64,000 nucleotides of DNA from assembly GCF_017348835.2 (NCBI RefSeq), contig NZ_CP071375.1; one strand, 5' to 3'. Below are positions 4,902-46,963 of the stretch, piece after piece. The notes under the pieces are model-generated. The model was not told the origin of the DNA and ran no database searches. It saw nothing but the letters and a program-made list of their open reading frames with translations. Each line of letters starts with the position of its first letter. The first letter of the stretch is position 1. The DNA comes from Escherichia coli (GTDB lineage: Bacteria > Pseudomonadota > Gammaproteobacteria > Enterobacterales > Enterobacteriaceae). Made by a program: the position numbers and the translations under genes.

Positions 4902-6359
<1,458 letters not shown>

Positions 6360-7010: not shown

Positions 7011-8799
7011 GGGTATCTCCTTGGACGTCTGTGAAAGTTTTTTCGGGAATAAAGGTGACCACCACTTCGGTGCCACCTGATTCACGACGGCGGACGCGGC
7101 AATCGCCTCGTAAACTTTGCGCACGGTCGCGCATTATTATCATGCCGTAGTGATTGCTGCGGATGGCATTTTCAGGCACGCCGCAGCCGTTATCCTGGAC
7201 GGTCAATTTGACCTGATTATCGTTTTGCGCCACCGTCACCACGACCTCACTCGCTTGCGAATGTTTGAGGGCGTTACTTAATGCCTCACGGGCAATTTGC
7301 AACAAGTGGATTGCCTGATGCGAAGGCACCAGACGAGGCGGCAATTGATAATCCAGCTTCACCGGGAAGCCAAATTTGGCGCTGTACTCTTCGCAACTCG
7401 CCTCCAGCGCCGGACGTAATCCAGGCTCGGTGAGCTGCAAGCGGAATGTGGTGAGCAATTCACGCAACTGCGCCCAGGATGCATTCAGTTCGTTACGGAT
7501 CTGACTTAACAGTTCGCGGCTGCTTTCTGGCAGCGCATCGCCCTGCATCTGTAAACAACTCACCTGCATCTTCATGCAAGAGAGAGATTGGGCAATAGAA
7601 TCATGCAGTTCGCGCGCAATGGTGGCACGCTCTTCCATCACGATCAACTGTTGCTGACGTTCCTGATGCCGATCCAGCGCCAGCGTGGCGGTGAGTTGTT
7701 CAACCAGGGTATCCACCAGTTGTTGTTGATCATGGCTAAGATGACGCCCCTGCGGCAGGGTCGCCAGCAAAATACCGTACTGCGTATGAGAGTCAGCCAG
7801 CCGCCACTTCAGGGTCGTGCCGCGATCACCAACGGGTAATACGCCGCGCGGGCAGAGCTGGCAGCCTTTATCATCACAAGTCATATCTGGCTGGCAGGTA
7901 AACTCCTGATGATTCTCTTCATCATCAGTGTCATACACCCGCAGTTCGATATCACGTAGCAGGGTTAAATTCTGTAAGCCGTTGAGTACAGGTGACAGGC
8001 GTTCACACAGCGGGGCGCGGGAATGCAAACGGCGGTTAGCCTGCCATAAAAAAGAGAGGATCTGATTTTTATGCTCCAGCCCGGCGGTTTTCTCCTGAAC
8101 CCGCTGCTCAAGTACGGCATAACTTTCGGCCAGTTCTGCAGACATATTGTTCAATGCAGTTCCAAGCATCGCCATTTCGTTGCGCCCGCTGATGTTTGCG
8201 CGTTGGGTAAAATCGCGATGGCTGACGGCACTCGCCATTGCCAGCAGTTGCCGCCACGGTTGTAGCAGTCGCGCCCGCAACCAGATAATAGTGAACACCA
8301 GTAAAAGTGCCATAAATACCGCCATTACCCGATGGACCAGTACCACTGTCTCAATGCGCATTTCCGTGGTGCGGTCAAAACCAGATACCAGCTGATCAAG
8401 CCCGGCAACAAACTGGCTGACATCCGCTGACACCGTTTCTCGGTTTTGTGCACGCATCAGCGCAGGGATCAGTTCATTACGCCAGTAATCTTGTAAACCC
8501 TGTAATTGCGCCAGTTGTCCGTCTCGTTCTGCTGCTCGAGTCAACTCGGCGCTAAATGCCGTTTGTTCCATCTCTTTAATTAAGGGCTTGTCTTTCTCGC
8601 TTAATGGCACTGCTGCCAACAGACGGTAACTTTGCATGCGCAGCGATCCCGCTTTGTTGATCGCATGGGCACTGCCCTGAACGCCTTGCACCAGCCAGCC
8701 AGAAACCGCCATCCCTGCCAGTCCAATAGCAGTAGAAAGCAACACAATAAGCGCAACCTGATTAACCAGGGTGAGCGGAGAGAGACAACGTTTAAGCAT
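7003..8799 (-). CDS. narX: Nitrate/nitrite sensor histidine kinase NarX, 598 aa
   Basis: Protein and synteny match NarX. Confidence 0.92.
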
Positions 8800-43403: not shown

Positions 43404-43759
43404 GCACTCTCCTTGAGTTTTATGCAGGTGTTAATTAGCGGGCAATTGTACCCTGGTTAAGCCTCGGGTGGCAGCATCAGGTCTTGTATGGAAAAGCATA
43501 TCTTTGTAAAGCGGAGGTAATCGCTGGCCTTCAGGCGTGGGCAAACCGCGGCAAGTGGCGATCGAGTTAATATTTGCGTAGCGAAAATATTTAAAAATTG
43601 ATTTAAATCACGTTAACCAGGATTCTCAATGCAACTTCTAAATTAATCCAGATCAATAAAGGGTGAATTATCATATGTAATGTGATCTATGTAGGATCAT
43701 TTGTTACTCCAATGTAGGTATATTCGTCACGTTTTTATAACCATAACGACGGAGCGGAT

Positions 43760-44398
43760 ATGAAAAAGTTAACAGTGGCGGCTTTGGCAGTAACAACTCT
43801 TCTCTCTGGCAGTGCCTTTGCGCATGAAGTAGGCGAATTTTTTATGCGTGCAGGTTCTGCAACCGTACGTCCAACAGAAGGTGCTGGTGGTACGTTAGGA
43901 AGTCTGGGTGGATTCAGCGTGACCAATAACACTCAACTGGGCCTGACGTTTACTTATATGGCGACCGACAACATTGGTGTGGAATTACTGGCAGCGACGC
44001 CGTTCCGCCATAAAATCGGCACCCGGGCGACCGGCGATATTGCAACCGTTCATCATCTGCCGCCAACACTGATGGCGCAGTGGTATTTTGGTGATGCCAG
44101 CAGCAAATTCCGTCCTTATGTTGGGGCAGGTATTAACTACACCACCTTCTTTGATAATGGATTTAACGATCATGGCAAAGAGGCGGGGCTTTCCGATCTC
44201 AGTCTGAAAGATTCCTGGGGAGCTGCCGGGCAGGTGGGGGTTGATTATCTGATTAACCGTGACTGGTTGGTTAACATGTCAGTCTGGTACATGGATATCG
44301 ATACCACCGCCAATTATAAACTGGGCGGTGCACAGCAACATGATAGCGTACGCCTCGATCCGTGGGTGTTTATGTTCTCAGCAGGATATCGTTTTTAA
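43760..44398 (+). CDS. ompW: Outer membrane protein W, 212 aa
   Basis: Signal peptide MKKLTVAALAVTTLLSGSAFA; C-terminal aromatic residue. Confidence 0.92.
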   Translation: MKKLTVAALAVTTLLSGSAFAHEVGEFFMRAGSATVRPTEGAGGTLGSLGGFSVTNNTQLGLTFTYMATDNIGVELLAATPFRHKIGTRATGDIATVHHLPPTLMAQWYFGDASSKFRPYVGAGINYTTFFDNGFNDHGKEAGLSDLSLKDSWGAAGQVGVDYLINRDWLVNMSVWYMDIDTTANYKLGGAQQHDSVRLDPWVFMFSAGYRF

Positions 44399-44403
44399 TT
44401 CCG

Positions 44404-44433
44404 CACAAAAACGACCCCGTAATATACGGGGTC
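44404..44433 (-). terminator. Rho-independent terminator after yciE
   Basis: GACCCCGTAATATACGGGGTC hairpin with a T-run on the minus strand. Confidence 0.6.
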
Positions 44434-44457
44434 AATAAGGACATGGCATAAAGGGTA

Positions 44458-44964
44458 TTATTTCTTCGCTTCTACGCCATCAGTTTCAGAGCGAATTAAA
44501 AATTTCTCAGTTGTTTGCGGAATATGCTGAATCAGCCATTCGGCCATTTGCTTTTCCTCATTTAAAATCGCTTCGATGATCGGAATTGAGGCTGTATCAC
44601 CGGCATTTTTTGCTGCTGCTAATAGTGAAGTATAACAGGCGATTTCAAATTGCTCGAAGACATACCCGCTAATAGAACCTTTGACTATTTCATCAGAAGG
44701 GAATATACAACCGATTGACTGCCCAAGCGCAGCCATTTTACTCATGGAATCTTTAATGACTGAACGTGAAATGTCATTACGATCAAGAATAGTTTCCAGT
44801 TGAACAATCTGGTTTTTGGTTTCACTAAGATGTTGTTCAATACGAGCGCGTAGTTCAGGATAATTATCTATACGGCTGGCCATGGATTCAAGCATAGATT
44901 CGGCTTGCTTTTCCATTGAGTGGGCGTCACGTAACCAGTCATGATAATGTTCAATACGATTCAT
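44458..44964 (-). CDS. yciE: Ferritin-like DUF892 protein YciE, 168 aa
   Basis: Protein and synteny. Confidence 0.88.
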   Translation of the reverse strand: MNRIEHYHDWLRDAHSMEKQAESMLESMASRIDNYPELRARIEQHLSETKNQIVQLETILDRNDISRSVIKDSMSKMAALGQSIGCIFPSDEIVKGSISGYVFEQFEIACYTSLLAAAKNAGDTASIPIIEAILNEEKQMAEWLIQHIPQTTEKFLIRSETDGVEAKK

Positions 44965-45009
44965 GAAAATGTCCTCTTTATAAAATGACTAAAAGTTAAA
45001 GTTCATATT

Positions 45010-45510
45010 TCAGGCTTTATTTTCGGCTTTCTTATTTACGTTATTAAGGGCCAGATCAGTCAGTTTGATGTCGGTGGCCTTTTCTTCTTCCAGGGTTTCT
45101 TTCAGAAGCTTCGCTGCTTTACGGTAACCTAATTGTTCAGCCAGCGTCGCTAATGTCCCGTAACTGGCAATCTCATAATGCTCGACTTTCTGTGCTGCGG
45201 CAATCAGTGCGGCATCACGCACTTCGTTTTTCTCGGTACTTTCGATGACCTCATTAGCTTCTTCAATAAGACCTTCCATTGCCACACATTTCATGCGCTT
45301 AATTTTCAGATTCGATTCTGATTCCACAACTTGATCAATACGTTCAATCTGTCCATGTGTTTCCTCGAGGTGCGCATGAAAAGCCTGACTTAATTTTTCG
45401 TTTGATGTTGCTCTTGCGAGTTTTGCCAGTGCCCGGGTTAATTGTTTTTCTGCGCTGTAGGTATCTGAAAGCAGGTGAATAAATACATCTTCAATGGTCT
45501 TCATATTCAT
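45010..45510 (-). CDS. yciF: Ferritin-like DUF892 protein YciF, 166 aa
   Basis: Start set at the ATG giving MNMKTIEDVFIHLL. Confidence 0.85.
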   Translation of the reverse strand: MNMKTIEDVFIHLLSDTYSAEKQLTRALAKLARATSNEKLSQAFHAHLEETHGQIERIDQVVESESNLKIKRMKCVAMEGLIEEANEVIESTEKNEVRDAALIAAAQKVEHYEIASYGTLATLAEQLGYRKAAKLLKETLEEEKATDIKLTDLALNNVNKKAENKA

Positions 45511-45595
45511 ATTTTTCTCCAGTGGAATCACTGCGAGCCATATGGCCCGCAGATGCAATTATCTTTATCAGCTGATATTAATAATTAACGGTGAA

Positions 45596-45775
45596 TCAGG
45601 ATTTACCTGATTTATTACCACCGTTTTGTTGACCGCCTTTTTTACCCGCTTCAGATGCGCGTTGCGGATCATTTTTAAAATTACCGCCGCTATGCTGACC
45701 GCCTTTACGGCCTGCGTCGGATGCCTTCTCACGGTCTTCGGCGAAATTTCCTGAACCACCACGATGTTCGGCCAT
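45596..45775 (-). CDS. yciG: KGG-repeat stress protein YciG, 59 aa
   Basis: Repeated RKGGQ / KKGGQ motifs; start set at MAEHRGGSGNF. Confidence 0.8.
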   Translation of the reverse strand: MAEHRGGSGNFAEDREKASDAGRKGGQHSGGNFKNDPQRASEAGKKGGQQNGGNKSGKS

Positions 45776-46121
45776 GTTATTTCTCCCGTTGCGTTGCATT
45801 GTTTCATTAATATGAGTGTTGTGTGTCGACACTCATTAAAATTAGTCGCCAATGAGAATTAGTCAAATTAAGCATAACGAGAAGAAAGTGGGAAAATATA
45901 TTATGAGGAACGTTCTTGATATATTAACAATTGCCTGAGGAATAAGTGACTTAGAGAAAATTATTGATTTTACTGGTGTTATGTTGCGGGATTAATTTGT
46001 TTGATTATATTACTGTTGGGCGGAAAAATGACGTAAGTTGACGTTTGACAGGGGTAAGCGAAACGGTAAAAAGATTAAATATTAAATGAATTTAGGATTT
46101 TTCCGGCTTCGTTAAAGAAAG

Positions 46122-46150
46122 TTAAAATGCCGCCAGCGGAACTGGCGGCT
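46122..46150 (-). terminator. trp operon terminator (trp t)
   Basis: Minus strand reads CAGCCGCCAGTTCCGCTGGCGGCATTTT immediately after the trpA stop. Confidence 0.8.
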
Positions 46151-46156
46151 GTGGGA

Positions 46157-46963
46157 TTAACTGCGCGTCGCCGCTTTCATCGGTTGTACAAAAACTTTCA
46201 GTGCCGCCAGCATTTTCTCTGGCTCATTAATATGTTGCTCGATGATTTTAACAATGGCCGAACCAGAAATCGCGCCCGCAGCTCCTGCATCAATCGCTGC
46301 TTTTACCTGATCCGGGGCGGAAATACCAAATCCCTGCAATGGAGGTGCAGCGTTGTACTCTTTCAGCTTCGCAACCAGATGATTGAGGGGTAACGCGGCG
46401 CGGTTTTCAGCGCCGGTCACGCCCGCACGCGACAGCAAATAGGTGTAACCACGACCGTAAGAGGCTATCTGGCGCAGCAAGTCGTCATCGGCATTCGGCG
46501 GGCAGATAAAGATAGGTGCGACATTATGGCGCAACGCGGCCTGGCGGAAGGGCGCGGACTCTTCAACTGGCACATCGGCAACCAGCACCGAATCGACGCC
46601 GACTTTCTCGCACTGGGCATAAAACTCATCAATGCCTTTGTTAAACACCAGATTGGCATACATCAAAAGGCCGATAGGAATGGTCGGGTGCTTCTGGCGA
46701 ATGAGTGCCAGCATCTCAAAGCACTGCGCCGGGGTCACACCTGCCGCAAAGGCACGCAGTGTGGCGTTTTGAATCGTCGGGCCATCTGCCAGTGGGTCGG
46801 AGAAGGGGATGCCTAACTCCAGCGCGTCAGCACCGGCTTCAATTAGCGTATCGATAATTTTCAGCGACTGCTCAATGCCCGGATCGCCGAGCGTGACGAA
46901 AGGAACGAATGCGCCTTCTTTGCGCTCCTTCAACTGGGCAAACAGAGATTCGTAGCGTTCCAT
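46157..46963 (-). CDS. trpA: Tryptophan synthase alpha subunit, 268 aa
   Basis: Protein and synteny. Confidence 0.95.

Follow-up and report, generated by a model that had tools for sequence, protein, structure and literature searches.

The closest described systems are found in Escherichia coli K-12, with the operon yciGFE, and in Salmonella enterica, with the operon yciGFE-katN (Robbe-Saule 2001; Beraud 2010; cited in PMC5437024 and PMC7705038). The operon has already been described and is an ordinary part of the general stress regulon governed by RpoS. Dependence on RpoS was reported for both E. coli and Salmonella (PMC5437024, PMC7161692, PMC2907692), and the literature describes this control together with silencing by H-NS and activation by McbR/YncC (PMC7705038, PMC5437024, PMC4223078, PMC5363993). 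Published transcriptome and proteome studies found yciGFE to be induced by osmotic, acid, bile, and peroxide stress. For YciF of Salmonella Typhimurium (PDB 4ERU), iron binding and ferroxidase activity in vitro were described in a preprint (bioRxiv 10.1101/2023.01.20.524870), and the RefSeq name is now "YciE/YciF ferroxidase family protein".

The window, i.e., the complete stretch of 64,000 nucleotides of E. coli DNA analyzed here, contains three minus-strand genes at 44458–45775, which are the known stationary-phase stress operon yciG-yciF-yciE in its ordinary form. Gene set, gene order, and the site between trpA and ompW are common to the window, K-12, and S. enterica. The yciGFE DNA is 100% identical to that of E. 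coli PE164 at the trpA|ompW site and 98% identical to that of K-12; the 1.8 kb are annotated as yciG, yciF, and yciE in RefSeq E. coli. The Salmonella proteins are 84% to 88% identical to those of the window, and the promoter core is alike. An earlier note on this DNA had named the three genes from the sequence, and the open reading frames, the Pfam domains, and the RefSeq annotation agree with these names. Pfam returned the KGG and DUF892 families only and no well-characterized enzyme family. A search of all three proteins against NCBIfam gave no match, though the RefSeq names are family-style. The same note had described a co-directional trio with short gaps, which is what was found on the minus strand, where 85 bp separate yciG from yciF and 45 bp separate yciF from yciE. 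On the coding strand, no terminator-like site was found between the three genes. An intrinsic terminator follows yciE (44412–44434, minus strand; 10-bp stem TGACCCCGTATATTACGGGGTCG followed by TTTTTGTGCG). It is located in the 59-bp gap between yciE and ompW and is shared with the convergent ompW, which ends at 44398. From this arrangement, the co-transcription of the three genes is predicted.

Taking these features and the literature together, we consider it probable that yciGFE is a sigma-S-driven, H-NS-silenced, and hairpin-terminated unit encoding a hydrophilin and two ferritin-like iron oxidizers. Transcription would start at a sigma-S-type promoter downstream of trpA, in an AT-rich region silenced by H-NS, and end at the hairpin terminator common to yciE and ompW. 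YciG is small, carries two KGG repeats, and is highly hydrophilic and, according to the literature, disordered; YciF and YciE are ferritin-like four-helix bundles with a carboxylate-rich two-metal site. The latter two would bind and oxidize ferrous iron and thereby lower Fenton chemistry in the stationary phase and under bile, acid, osmotic, and peroxide stress. Beyond a confirmed annotation, the locus is of little consequence, and the structures of its ferritin-like proteins have already been solved.

Like K-12 and unlike Salmonella and Citrobacter, the window lacks katN. No manganese catalase gene (PF05067) is located directly after yciE, so that the window carries the three-gene version, whereas in Salmonella and Citrobacter the trpA–ompW site is occupied by yciG-yciF-yciE-katN in this order. 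A YciG-like gene was collected from 80 loci at the species level; a yciF homologue lies directly downstream and in the same order in 37 of them, with yciE also present in 31 of these and katN in 20. Most of these cassette loci are not adjacent to trpA, and a KGG-DUF892 cassette also occurs on Enterobacter hormaechei plasmids. Most of the copies labeled as plasmid-borne proved to be mislabeled chromosomes of 4.8 to 4.9 Mb or chromosome fragments and were discarded. Because katN is located at the end of the cassette in relatives, the ancestral unit resembles a module for the detoxification of iron and peroxide, in which the manganese-dependent, haem-free catalase would have been encoded last; this E. 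coli lineage is devoid of katN. Within E. coli, an empty trpA|ompW junction was detected in 682 out of 5426 complete genomes (12.6%), and approximately 136 genomes (about 2.5%) retain yciFE without yciG. The operon is therefore dispensable in E. coli, and since it is absent in 12.6% of the genomes, any role is conditional.

The same data might indicate that what E. coli retains of a mobile four-gene cassette is decaying, largely silent, and of little present-day function. Such a decay would fit the loss of katN from a site where Salmonella and Citrobacter retain it, the empty and yciG-deleted haplotypes, the different chromosomal location of the cassette in most genera and its occurrence on E. 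hormaechei plasmids, and the silencing by H-NS reported for K-12 in the literature. The GC content of the operon (41.8%) is also lower than that of the window (49.9%); this low GC and that of the trpA-yciG intergenic region (36%) are at the same time consistent with silencing by H-NS. A mere remnant nevertheless appears rather unlikely to us, since the three open reading frames are intact and highly conserved, with 95% to 99% identity in the yciGFE region for 4774 out of 4835 matching genomes, the metal-site residues are kept, the core of the promoter has been preserved from genus to genus, and induction by the stresses mentioned above was observed in published studies. We thus retain the functional stress operon as the preferred reading.

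The trpA-yciG intergenic region (45776–46156, minus strand) comprises 381 bp with promoter and leader and contains 64% AT; at 45800–46099, the GC content decreases to about 31%. The earlier note had placed an AT-rich region of roughly 300 bp at 45853–46156. Its AT-richness is confirmed, and its extent was 77 bp too short. The promoter elements at 45866–45836 straddle this 45853 boundary, and the position 45900 at which the note let the gene cluster end takes in the leader and the core promoter. trpA ends at 46157, and just past its stop codon, the trp operon terminator (46129–46149, minus strand), a hairpin with a 9-bp stem including seven GC pairs (GCCGCCAGTTCCGCTGGCGGC) followed by a T-run (ATTTTAACTT), delimits the regulatory region of yciG on its upstream side. 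The predicted −35 box TTGACT of the yciG promoter (45861–45866, minus strand) is separated from the −10 hexamer by 16 nt, a spacing that was checked in the window. The predicted extended −10 element CTAATTTTAA (45836–45845, minus strand) displays a C at −13, the hexamer TAATTT, and TAA at −6 to −4. The consensus sequence of sigma-S promoters is TCTATACTTAA. All −10 features expected for sigma-S (C−13, T−12, A−11, T−7, and a downstream TAA, with the −35 box being optional) are found in CTAATTTTAA. Among representatives of 38 Enterobacterales species, at least 90% keep TTTGAC, and CTAnnnTTaa downstream of it is conserved across the same 38 species. This conserved −35/−10 pattern supports the earlier suggestion of a sigma-S-type promoter, and we predict the core promoter at 45866–45836 to be of this type, with transcription probably starting near G45832. 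The Shine-Dalgarno sequence GGGAGA of yciG (45782–45787, minus strand) was identified within the 25 nt that precede the start codon, and the sequence GGAGAAATAA-ATG is invariant in E. coli, Salmonella, and Citrobacter.

A sigma-70-like site at 45927–45900, which was obtained in a promoter scan, was rejected because it is not conserved between genera and because the number of promoter-like hits did not exceed that in shuffled sequence. Beraud et al. are said to have described an upstream sigma-70 promoter that is repressed by YncC. The conserved block ATCCTAAA at 46098–46091, which resembles the RcsB-like half-site of the Reg-Seq preprint, was likewise set aside, as it occurs in trpA-linked loci only and is absent from the other 30-odd cassettes. 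In an Rfam search of 44300–46300 with a permissive threshold, the sole hit was to sroD, on the trp terminator, and its score was at chance level (21.9 bits vs. a threshold of 50). The 85-bp spacer between yciG and yciF (45511–45595, minus strand) contains an imperfect hairpin (GCGGGCCATATGGCTCGC) and the yciF Shine-Dalgarno sequence GGAG. The primers given in PMC7705038 map to this spacer; binding of McbR to a probe covering it was reported and an internal promoter upstream of yciF was suggested there (PMC7705038).

YciF (45010–45510, minus strand, 166 amino acids) and YciE (44458–44964, minus strand, 168 amino acids) are DUF892 proteins over their full length. With a gathering threshold of 23.7 bits for this family (PF05974), YciF scored 176.7 bits (E = 4.7e-52, profile positions 1–158 of 159) and YciE 171.4 bits (E = 2e-50, positions 4–158 of 159). 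Both are near-identical to E. coli proteins of solved structure: YciF matches PDB 2GS4 (E = 2.5e-98) with one substitution, and YciE matches PDB 3OGH (E = 4.3e-104). The two proteins share 26% identity over 140 amino acids (E = 9e-8), which bears out the view of the earlier note that they are ferritin-like paralogues. The di-metal site of YciF consists of E21, H47, E50, Q54, E110, H111, E113, and E143. YciE keeps E18, H45, E48, Q52, E104, E107, and E137 and carries Q105 at the position of H111 in YciF. The three site residues Q54 (M2), E113 (M1), and E143 (bridging) of YciF thus correspond to Q52, E107, and E137 of YciE. In 57 diverse DUF892 representatives, E113 was conserved in 100%, E143 in 93%, and Q or H at position 54 in 98%.

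YciF of the window is 86% identical to that of Salmonella, and both are full-length DUF892 proteins with identical Q54, E113, and E143. In the Salmonella protein, the exchanges Q54A, E113Q, and E143D reduced or abolished the ferroxidase activity, and the metal-site mutants lost the protection against ROS under bile stress along with the activity; iron was detected by direct staining and stabilized the protein thermally, EDTA did not affect its stability, and oligomers of approximately 110 to 120 kDa were observed (bioRxiv 10.1101/2023.01.20.524870). The ferroxidase claim for the YciF family refers to this one orthologue in vitro, and the window proteins are linked to it by sequence likeness. 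E. coli YciF and YciE probably share the iron-oxidizing activity, and binding and oxidation of ferrous iron is their most likely activity. The "unknown function" assigned to the cluster in the earlier note is consequently outdated with respect to the Salmonella ferroxidase and still appropriate insofar as domain searches give only KGG and DUF892. Oxidation of Fe2+ in vitro may be generic for diiron four-helix bundles. Ferritin, bacterioferritin, Dps, and rubrerythrin have the four-helix bundle, a carboxylate-rich di-metal center, and Fe2+ oxidation in common with YciF. In contrast to these proteins, YciF and YciE are not members of the ferritin superfamily on the sequence level: no Pfam Ferritin match was found in either, and the Rubrerythrin match of YciF is below the threshold (E = 0.0057, 17.5 bits vs. 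a cut-off of 22.8). Furthermore, YciF possesses a single bridging carboxylate, the canonical ExxH motif is replaced by Gln or His at residue 54, and the protein forms dimers in the crystal and assemblies of about six subunits in solution, whereas ferritin and Dps form cages of 24 or 12 subunits. The size of roughly six subunits argues against a classical ferritin or Dps cage and makes real iron storage doubtful.

That oligomer size, the indifference to EDTA, the sub-threshold Rubrerythrin match, and the linkage to a catalase gene in 20 of the 37 yciF cassettes could also point to a different role of the diiron site. YciF and YciE might act as rubrerythrin-like peroxide reductases or as O2 or redox sensors beside the manganese catalase, with ferroxidase being a side reaction in vitro. 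The iron staining, the thermal stabilization, and the joint loss of activity and ROS protection in the metal-site mutants are at odds with this view, and the cassette contains neither a rubredoxin-like domain nor a corresponding partner gene. We regard it as improbable and favor iron oxidation.

YciG (45596–45775, minus strand, ATG to TGA) has 59 amino acids and a pI of 9.9. The earlier description of a KGG-repeat protein is substantiated by the match to Pfam KGG (PF10685; 61.3 bits, E = 9.3e-17, gathering threshold 20.4 bits). KGG is found at residues 24 and 46 within RKGGQ (23–27) and KKGGQ (45–49), i.e., in two repeats of about 22 amino acids each. YciG is 88% identical to its Salmonella counterpart and reads QQNGG at one site, at which K-12 presumably has QQSGG; like the one substitution of YciF relative to 2GS4, this is a minor allelic difference. 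The protein contains 23.7% Gly and no Leu, Ile, Val, Trp, Tyr, or Cys, and its GRAVY value is −1.72, a composition that makes a hydrophobic core implausible and is that of a hydrophilin. The thresholds of Garay-Arroyo et al. 2000 for this group are reportedly more than 6% Gly and a mean hydrophilicity index above 1. In the literature, YciG is called a hydrophilin and experimentally unstructured (PMC5437024, PMC7161692), and KGG paralogues are referred to as "confirmed" unstructured (PMC7161692). E. coli YmdF and Salmonella STM14_1829/SEN1538 are stress proteins with the same Pfam repeat, which are also small, very hydrophilic, and under stress-sigma control. YciG differs from them as the paralogue that heads a DUF892 cassette, whereas they are encoded by stand-alone genes. 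Based on the RefSeq name "con-10 family", we take Bacillus GsiB and Neurospora con-10 to be akin to YciG.

The order yciG-yciF(-yciE) is strictly kept in the 37 yciF loci, even where the cassette has been relocated, which suggests that YciG works together with YciF and YciE. A considerable possibility, to which we assign somewhat less than even chances, is that YciG is merely co-transcribed with them and acts independently, for instance by modulating motility and c-di-GMP signaling or as a disordered protein with a general protective effect. Half of the KGG genes (40 of the 80 loci) are stand-alone paralogues, and natural yciG deletions place yciFE behind the same promoter. Phenotypes published for yciG mutants concern motility, acid, and invasion, and a two-hybrid assay in S. 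Paratyphi A revealed an interaction with the phosphodiesterase YhjH. The association of YciG with DUF892 proteins is loose in both directions, as stand-alone KGG genes, DUF892 genes without a KGG neighbor, and the yciG-less E. coli genomes exist side by side. Three distant DUF892 genes (50% to 59% identical) had no KGG, second DUF892, or catalase gene as a neighbor, and the small open reading frames adjoining them were not KGG-like; another DUF892 gene, on a contig of 1 kb, offered no context. Long hydrophilic C-terminal tails of four DUF892 proteins were considered as KGG-DUF892 Rosetta-stone fusions and rejected, since Pfam KGG gave no match at E ≤ 0.01.

A more far-reaching reading would combine these elements into a self-contained, horizontally moving, iron-sparing oxidative-stress cassette, in which YciF and YciE form a mixed mini-ferritin-like oligomer, YciG serves as their dedicated partner, expression is controlled post-transcriptionally by a hitherto undescribed leader element, and E. 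coli is losing the module piecemeal. We consider this combination improbable as a whole. Independently of this reading, the natural variants (empty site, yciG-less genomes, and katN-bearing relatives) provide material for testing the function of the module in E. coli. Two tandem DUF892-DUF892 fusions were dismissed as evidence for a YciF-YciE heterodimer, because both halves are YciF-like and hence silent on this pair. Control by the leader would involve a GAACG box, which is conserved, and downstream of it a hairpin of genus-dependent sequence, and the cold-shock protein CspE may act there; YciF expression was lower in a Salmonella cspE mutant (bioRxiv 10.1101/2023.01.20.524870). In the window, the inverted repeat ATGAGTGT/ACACTCAT (45812–45836, minus strand) encloses the perfect palindrome GTGTCGACAC at 45832–45823. 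When 22 leaders were aligned with MAFFT, RNAalifold gave no consensus structure because the 3′ arms were out of register, after which the leaders were folded individually against shuffled controls. The E. coli leader folds with −8.9 kcal/mol (z = −1.7), and stems of about 5 to 11 bp with unrelated sequence were found at the same position in 11 other genera, of which the E. coli inverted repeat is the weak counterpart.

The yciGFE locus of the window is an already known, structurally characterised and RpoS-controlled stress operon, which had been correctly identified from the sequence and is unsurprising to specialists. It consists of three co-directional open reading frames on the minus strand, as proposed in the earlier note: yciG (45596-45775, 59 amino acids), yciF (45010-45510, 166 amino acids), and yciE (44458-44964, 168 amino acids). 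Each starts with ATG and is preceded by a Shine-Dalgarno sequence (GGGAGA, GGAG, and AGAGGA, respectively). The genes are separated by 85 bp (yciG-yciF) and 45 bp (yciF-yciE), and no terminator-like sites were found between them on the coding strand. A hairpin with a 10-bp stem and a T-run follows yciE (44434-44412, minus strand). Over its 1.8 kb, the segment shows 100% identity with E. coli strain PE164 and 98% with K-12, and RefSeq names its genes yciG, yciF, and yciE. The flanking genes are trpA (46157-46963), located on the same strand, and ompW (43760-44398), which is convergent to the operon. The intergenic region upstream of yciG had been placed at 45853-46156 (approximately 300 bp), but actually covers 45776-46156 (minus strand, 381 bp, 64% AT).

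YciF and YciE match DUF892 over their full length (Pfam, E = 4.7e-52 and 2e-50, respectively) and are paralogous (26% identity, E = 9e-8). YciF differs from the solved E. coli structure 2GS4 by one substitution, and YciE is near-identical to the solved E. coli structure 3OGH (E = 4.3e-104). The DUF892 family is very large, as an exhaustive search recovered 10,417 clusters at 50% identity (E ≤ 0.001). In an alignment of 57 diverse full-length representatives, the candidate metal ligands (YciF numbering) are E21 (98%), H47 (96%), E50 (84%), E110 (98%), H111 (98%), E113 (100%), and E143 (93%); position 54 is occupied by Q (61%) or H (37%). The equivalents E18, H45, E48, Q52, E104, E107, and E137 are kept in YciE, in which Q105 replaces H111. 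According to a 2023 preprint (bioRxiv 10.1101/2023.01.20.524870), YciF of Salmonella forms oligomers of approximately 110-120 kDa, binds iron and oxidises Fe2+; this activity is partially lost in the Q54A and E113Q variants and fully lost in E143D. Under bile stress, reactive oxygen species were reduced by the wild-type protein, but not by the mutants. The window YciF is 86% identical to this protein and contains Q54, E113, and E143. Judged from the sequence, both YciF and YciE of the window can presumably form a two-metal site, and most likely they would oxidise ferrous iron. The label "iron storage" goes too far, because about six subunits do not amount to a ferritin or Dps cage. The biochemical role had been described as poorly defined, which is still fair for YciG and YciE and is partly superseded for YciF by the Salmonella study. 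Three family representatives (P0146, P0157, and P0150) carry long C-terminal low-complexity tails of hydrophilin-like composition with repeated G-W-F-G-D-S-E/Q-G-H-x-E-A motifs. The hydrophilic tails on some DUF892 proteins were rejected as KGG fusions, since Pfam KGG does not recognise them.

YciG itself matches Pfam KGG (PF10685, E = 9.3e-17) in two repeat stretches, NFAEDREKASDAGRKGGQHSGG and NFKNDPQRASEAGKKGGQQNGG. It contains 23.7% glycine and no leucine, isoleucine, or valine (GRAVY −1.72, pI 9.9). The protein has been classified as a hydrophilin (PMC5437024), and an unstructured state in solution is stated as confirmed for the KGG paralogues YciG, YmdF, and STM14_1829 (PMC7161692).

The upstream regions of yciG were compared among 38 Enterobacterales species representatives with the cassette. 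Two blocks, TTTGAC followed by CTAnnnTT(a)a, are kept in at least 90% of these species, which supports at the sequence level the sigma S-type promoter suggested previously. Their minus-strand counterparts in the window are TTGACT (45866-45861) and CTAATTTTAA (45845-45836), spaced by 16 nt. The latter provides a C at −13, the −10 hexamer TAATTT, and TAA at −6 to −4, a pattern which we take to fit the extended −10 element typical of sigma-S promoters. The predicted transcription start at about G45832 results in a leader of approximately 57 nt. The GC content is 41.8% in the operon and decreases to about 31% upstream (window, 49.9%), which is compatible with H-NS silencing. Experimentally, yciGFE is RpoS-dependent, silenced by H-NS, and activated by McbR/YncC (PMC7705038; PMC5363993; PMC7161692; PMC5437024; PMC4223078). 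A sigma-70-like site from the promoter scan (45927-45900) was discarded for its lack of conservation across genera. Shortly 3' of the trp terminator hairpin (46149-46129, minus strand, terminator scan), the block GGAAAAATCCTAAA (46091-46105) is kept in E. coli, Salmonella, and Citrobacter and was not found upstream of cassettes at other locations. It resembles an RcsB-like half-site which the Reg-Seq preprint considers in connection with osmotically induced promoters.

The predicted leader of most genera starts with a conserved GAACG box, and about 10-14 nt past the start a hairpin with a stem of roughly 5-11 bp is located, approximately 45-70 nt upstream of yciG (comparison loci L016-L093). 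The stem sequence varies by genus, the arms being, among others, GATACG.../...CGTATC, ACGACAT/ATGTCGT, TGAACATG/CATGTTCA, and ATGACATA/TATGTCAT. Folded individually against shuffled controls, 11 leaders of other genera gave z-scores of −1.0 to −5.5. The inverted repeat of the E. coli leader, ATGAGTGT/ACACTCAT (45836-45812, minus strand), is weak (−8.9 kcal/mol, z = −1.7), and a transcription start at 45832 would remove part of it. Individual folding of the Salmonella leader gave no hairpin at the matching spot (z = +1.1), RNAalifold detected no consensus structure in the leader alignment, and an Rfam search for the element returned no matching family. These results hint at a leader stem-loop but do not prove it. 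A protein operator is disfavoured by the variable length of the loop.

The site in Salmonella and two Citrobacter species has the order trpA, KGG gene, two DUF892 genes, the manganese catalase gene katN, and ompW. The catalase gene lies 3' of yciE in Salmonella (7104-7982 of locus L004), Citrobacter, Klebsiella, Enterobacter, and Kosakonia. The window lacks it altogether: just 59 bp including the terminator (44399-44457) separate yciE from ompW; the window therefore represents the three-gene form. On the other side of ompW, the E. coli interval up to yciC contains, by RefSeq annotation, a 90-bp remnant of a YkgJ-family gene with a CxxCxxCC cysteine cluster (5681-5770 of comparison locus L001; the corresponding interval of the window is about 43404-43759), where Salmonella has an intact gene of 134 amino acids (L004, 9040-9444). 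Of 80 species-level loci that contain a YciG-like gene, 37 have a yciF homologue immediately 3' in the same order, 31 of which also contain yciE, and 20 of the yciF-bearing cassettes include katN. The KGG gene stands alone in 40 loci. Distant DUF892 genes (50-59% identity) also stand alone. Since trpA flanks only the Escherichia and Salmonella loci, the cassette changes its location but retains its internal order. This gene order, as the sole basis here, indirectly suggests that YciG may work with DUF892 proteins. A yciGFE copy with 74% DNA identity to the window is found on Enterobacter hormaechei plasmids of 51-58 kb; two such plasmids (NZ_CP126871.1 and NZ_CP114989.1) carry a KGG gene and two DUF892 genes. 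With sizes of 4.8-4.9 Mb, several PLSDB records labelled "plasmid" are clearly chromosomes of E. coli.

The segment between ompW and trpA (44399-46156) shows a presence/absence polymorphism in E. coli. Of 5426 complete genomes, 4715 contain the full locus, and yciGFE is entirely missing from 682 (12.6%), in which trpA is joined directly to ompW (6045-6095 of the empty-site locus L003). The empty-site genomes have a 50-bp spacer between the trpA stop codon and ompW, which contains a different hairpin, and their ompW diverges at its 3' end, the gene measuring 654 bp instead of 639 bp. Because Salmonella and Citrobacter hold the cassette at the same site, the simplest reading of the empty state is a secondary loss. 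Subtraction gives about 136 genomes that are without a 319-bp segment but possess the rest of the locus. In this third haplotype, exemplified by strains FDAARGOS_1260 and DA61218, a deletion corresponding to 45482-45800 eliminates yciG together with 29 nt from the start of yciF. The promoter is kept, an upstream ATG (45806) is fused in frame to yciF, and a YciF of 160 amino acids is annotated directly behind the yciG promoter (1889-1900 of the deletion locus L002).
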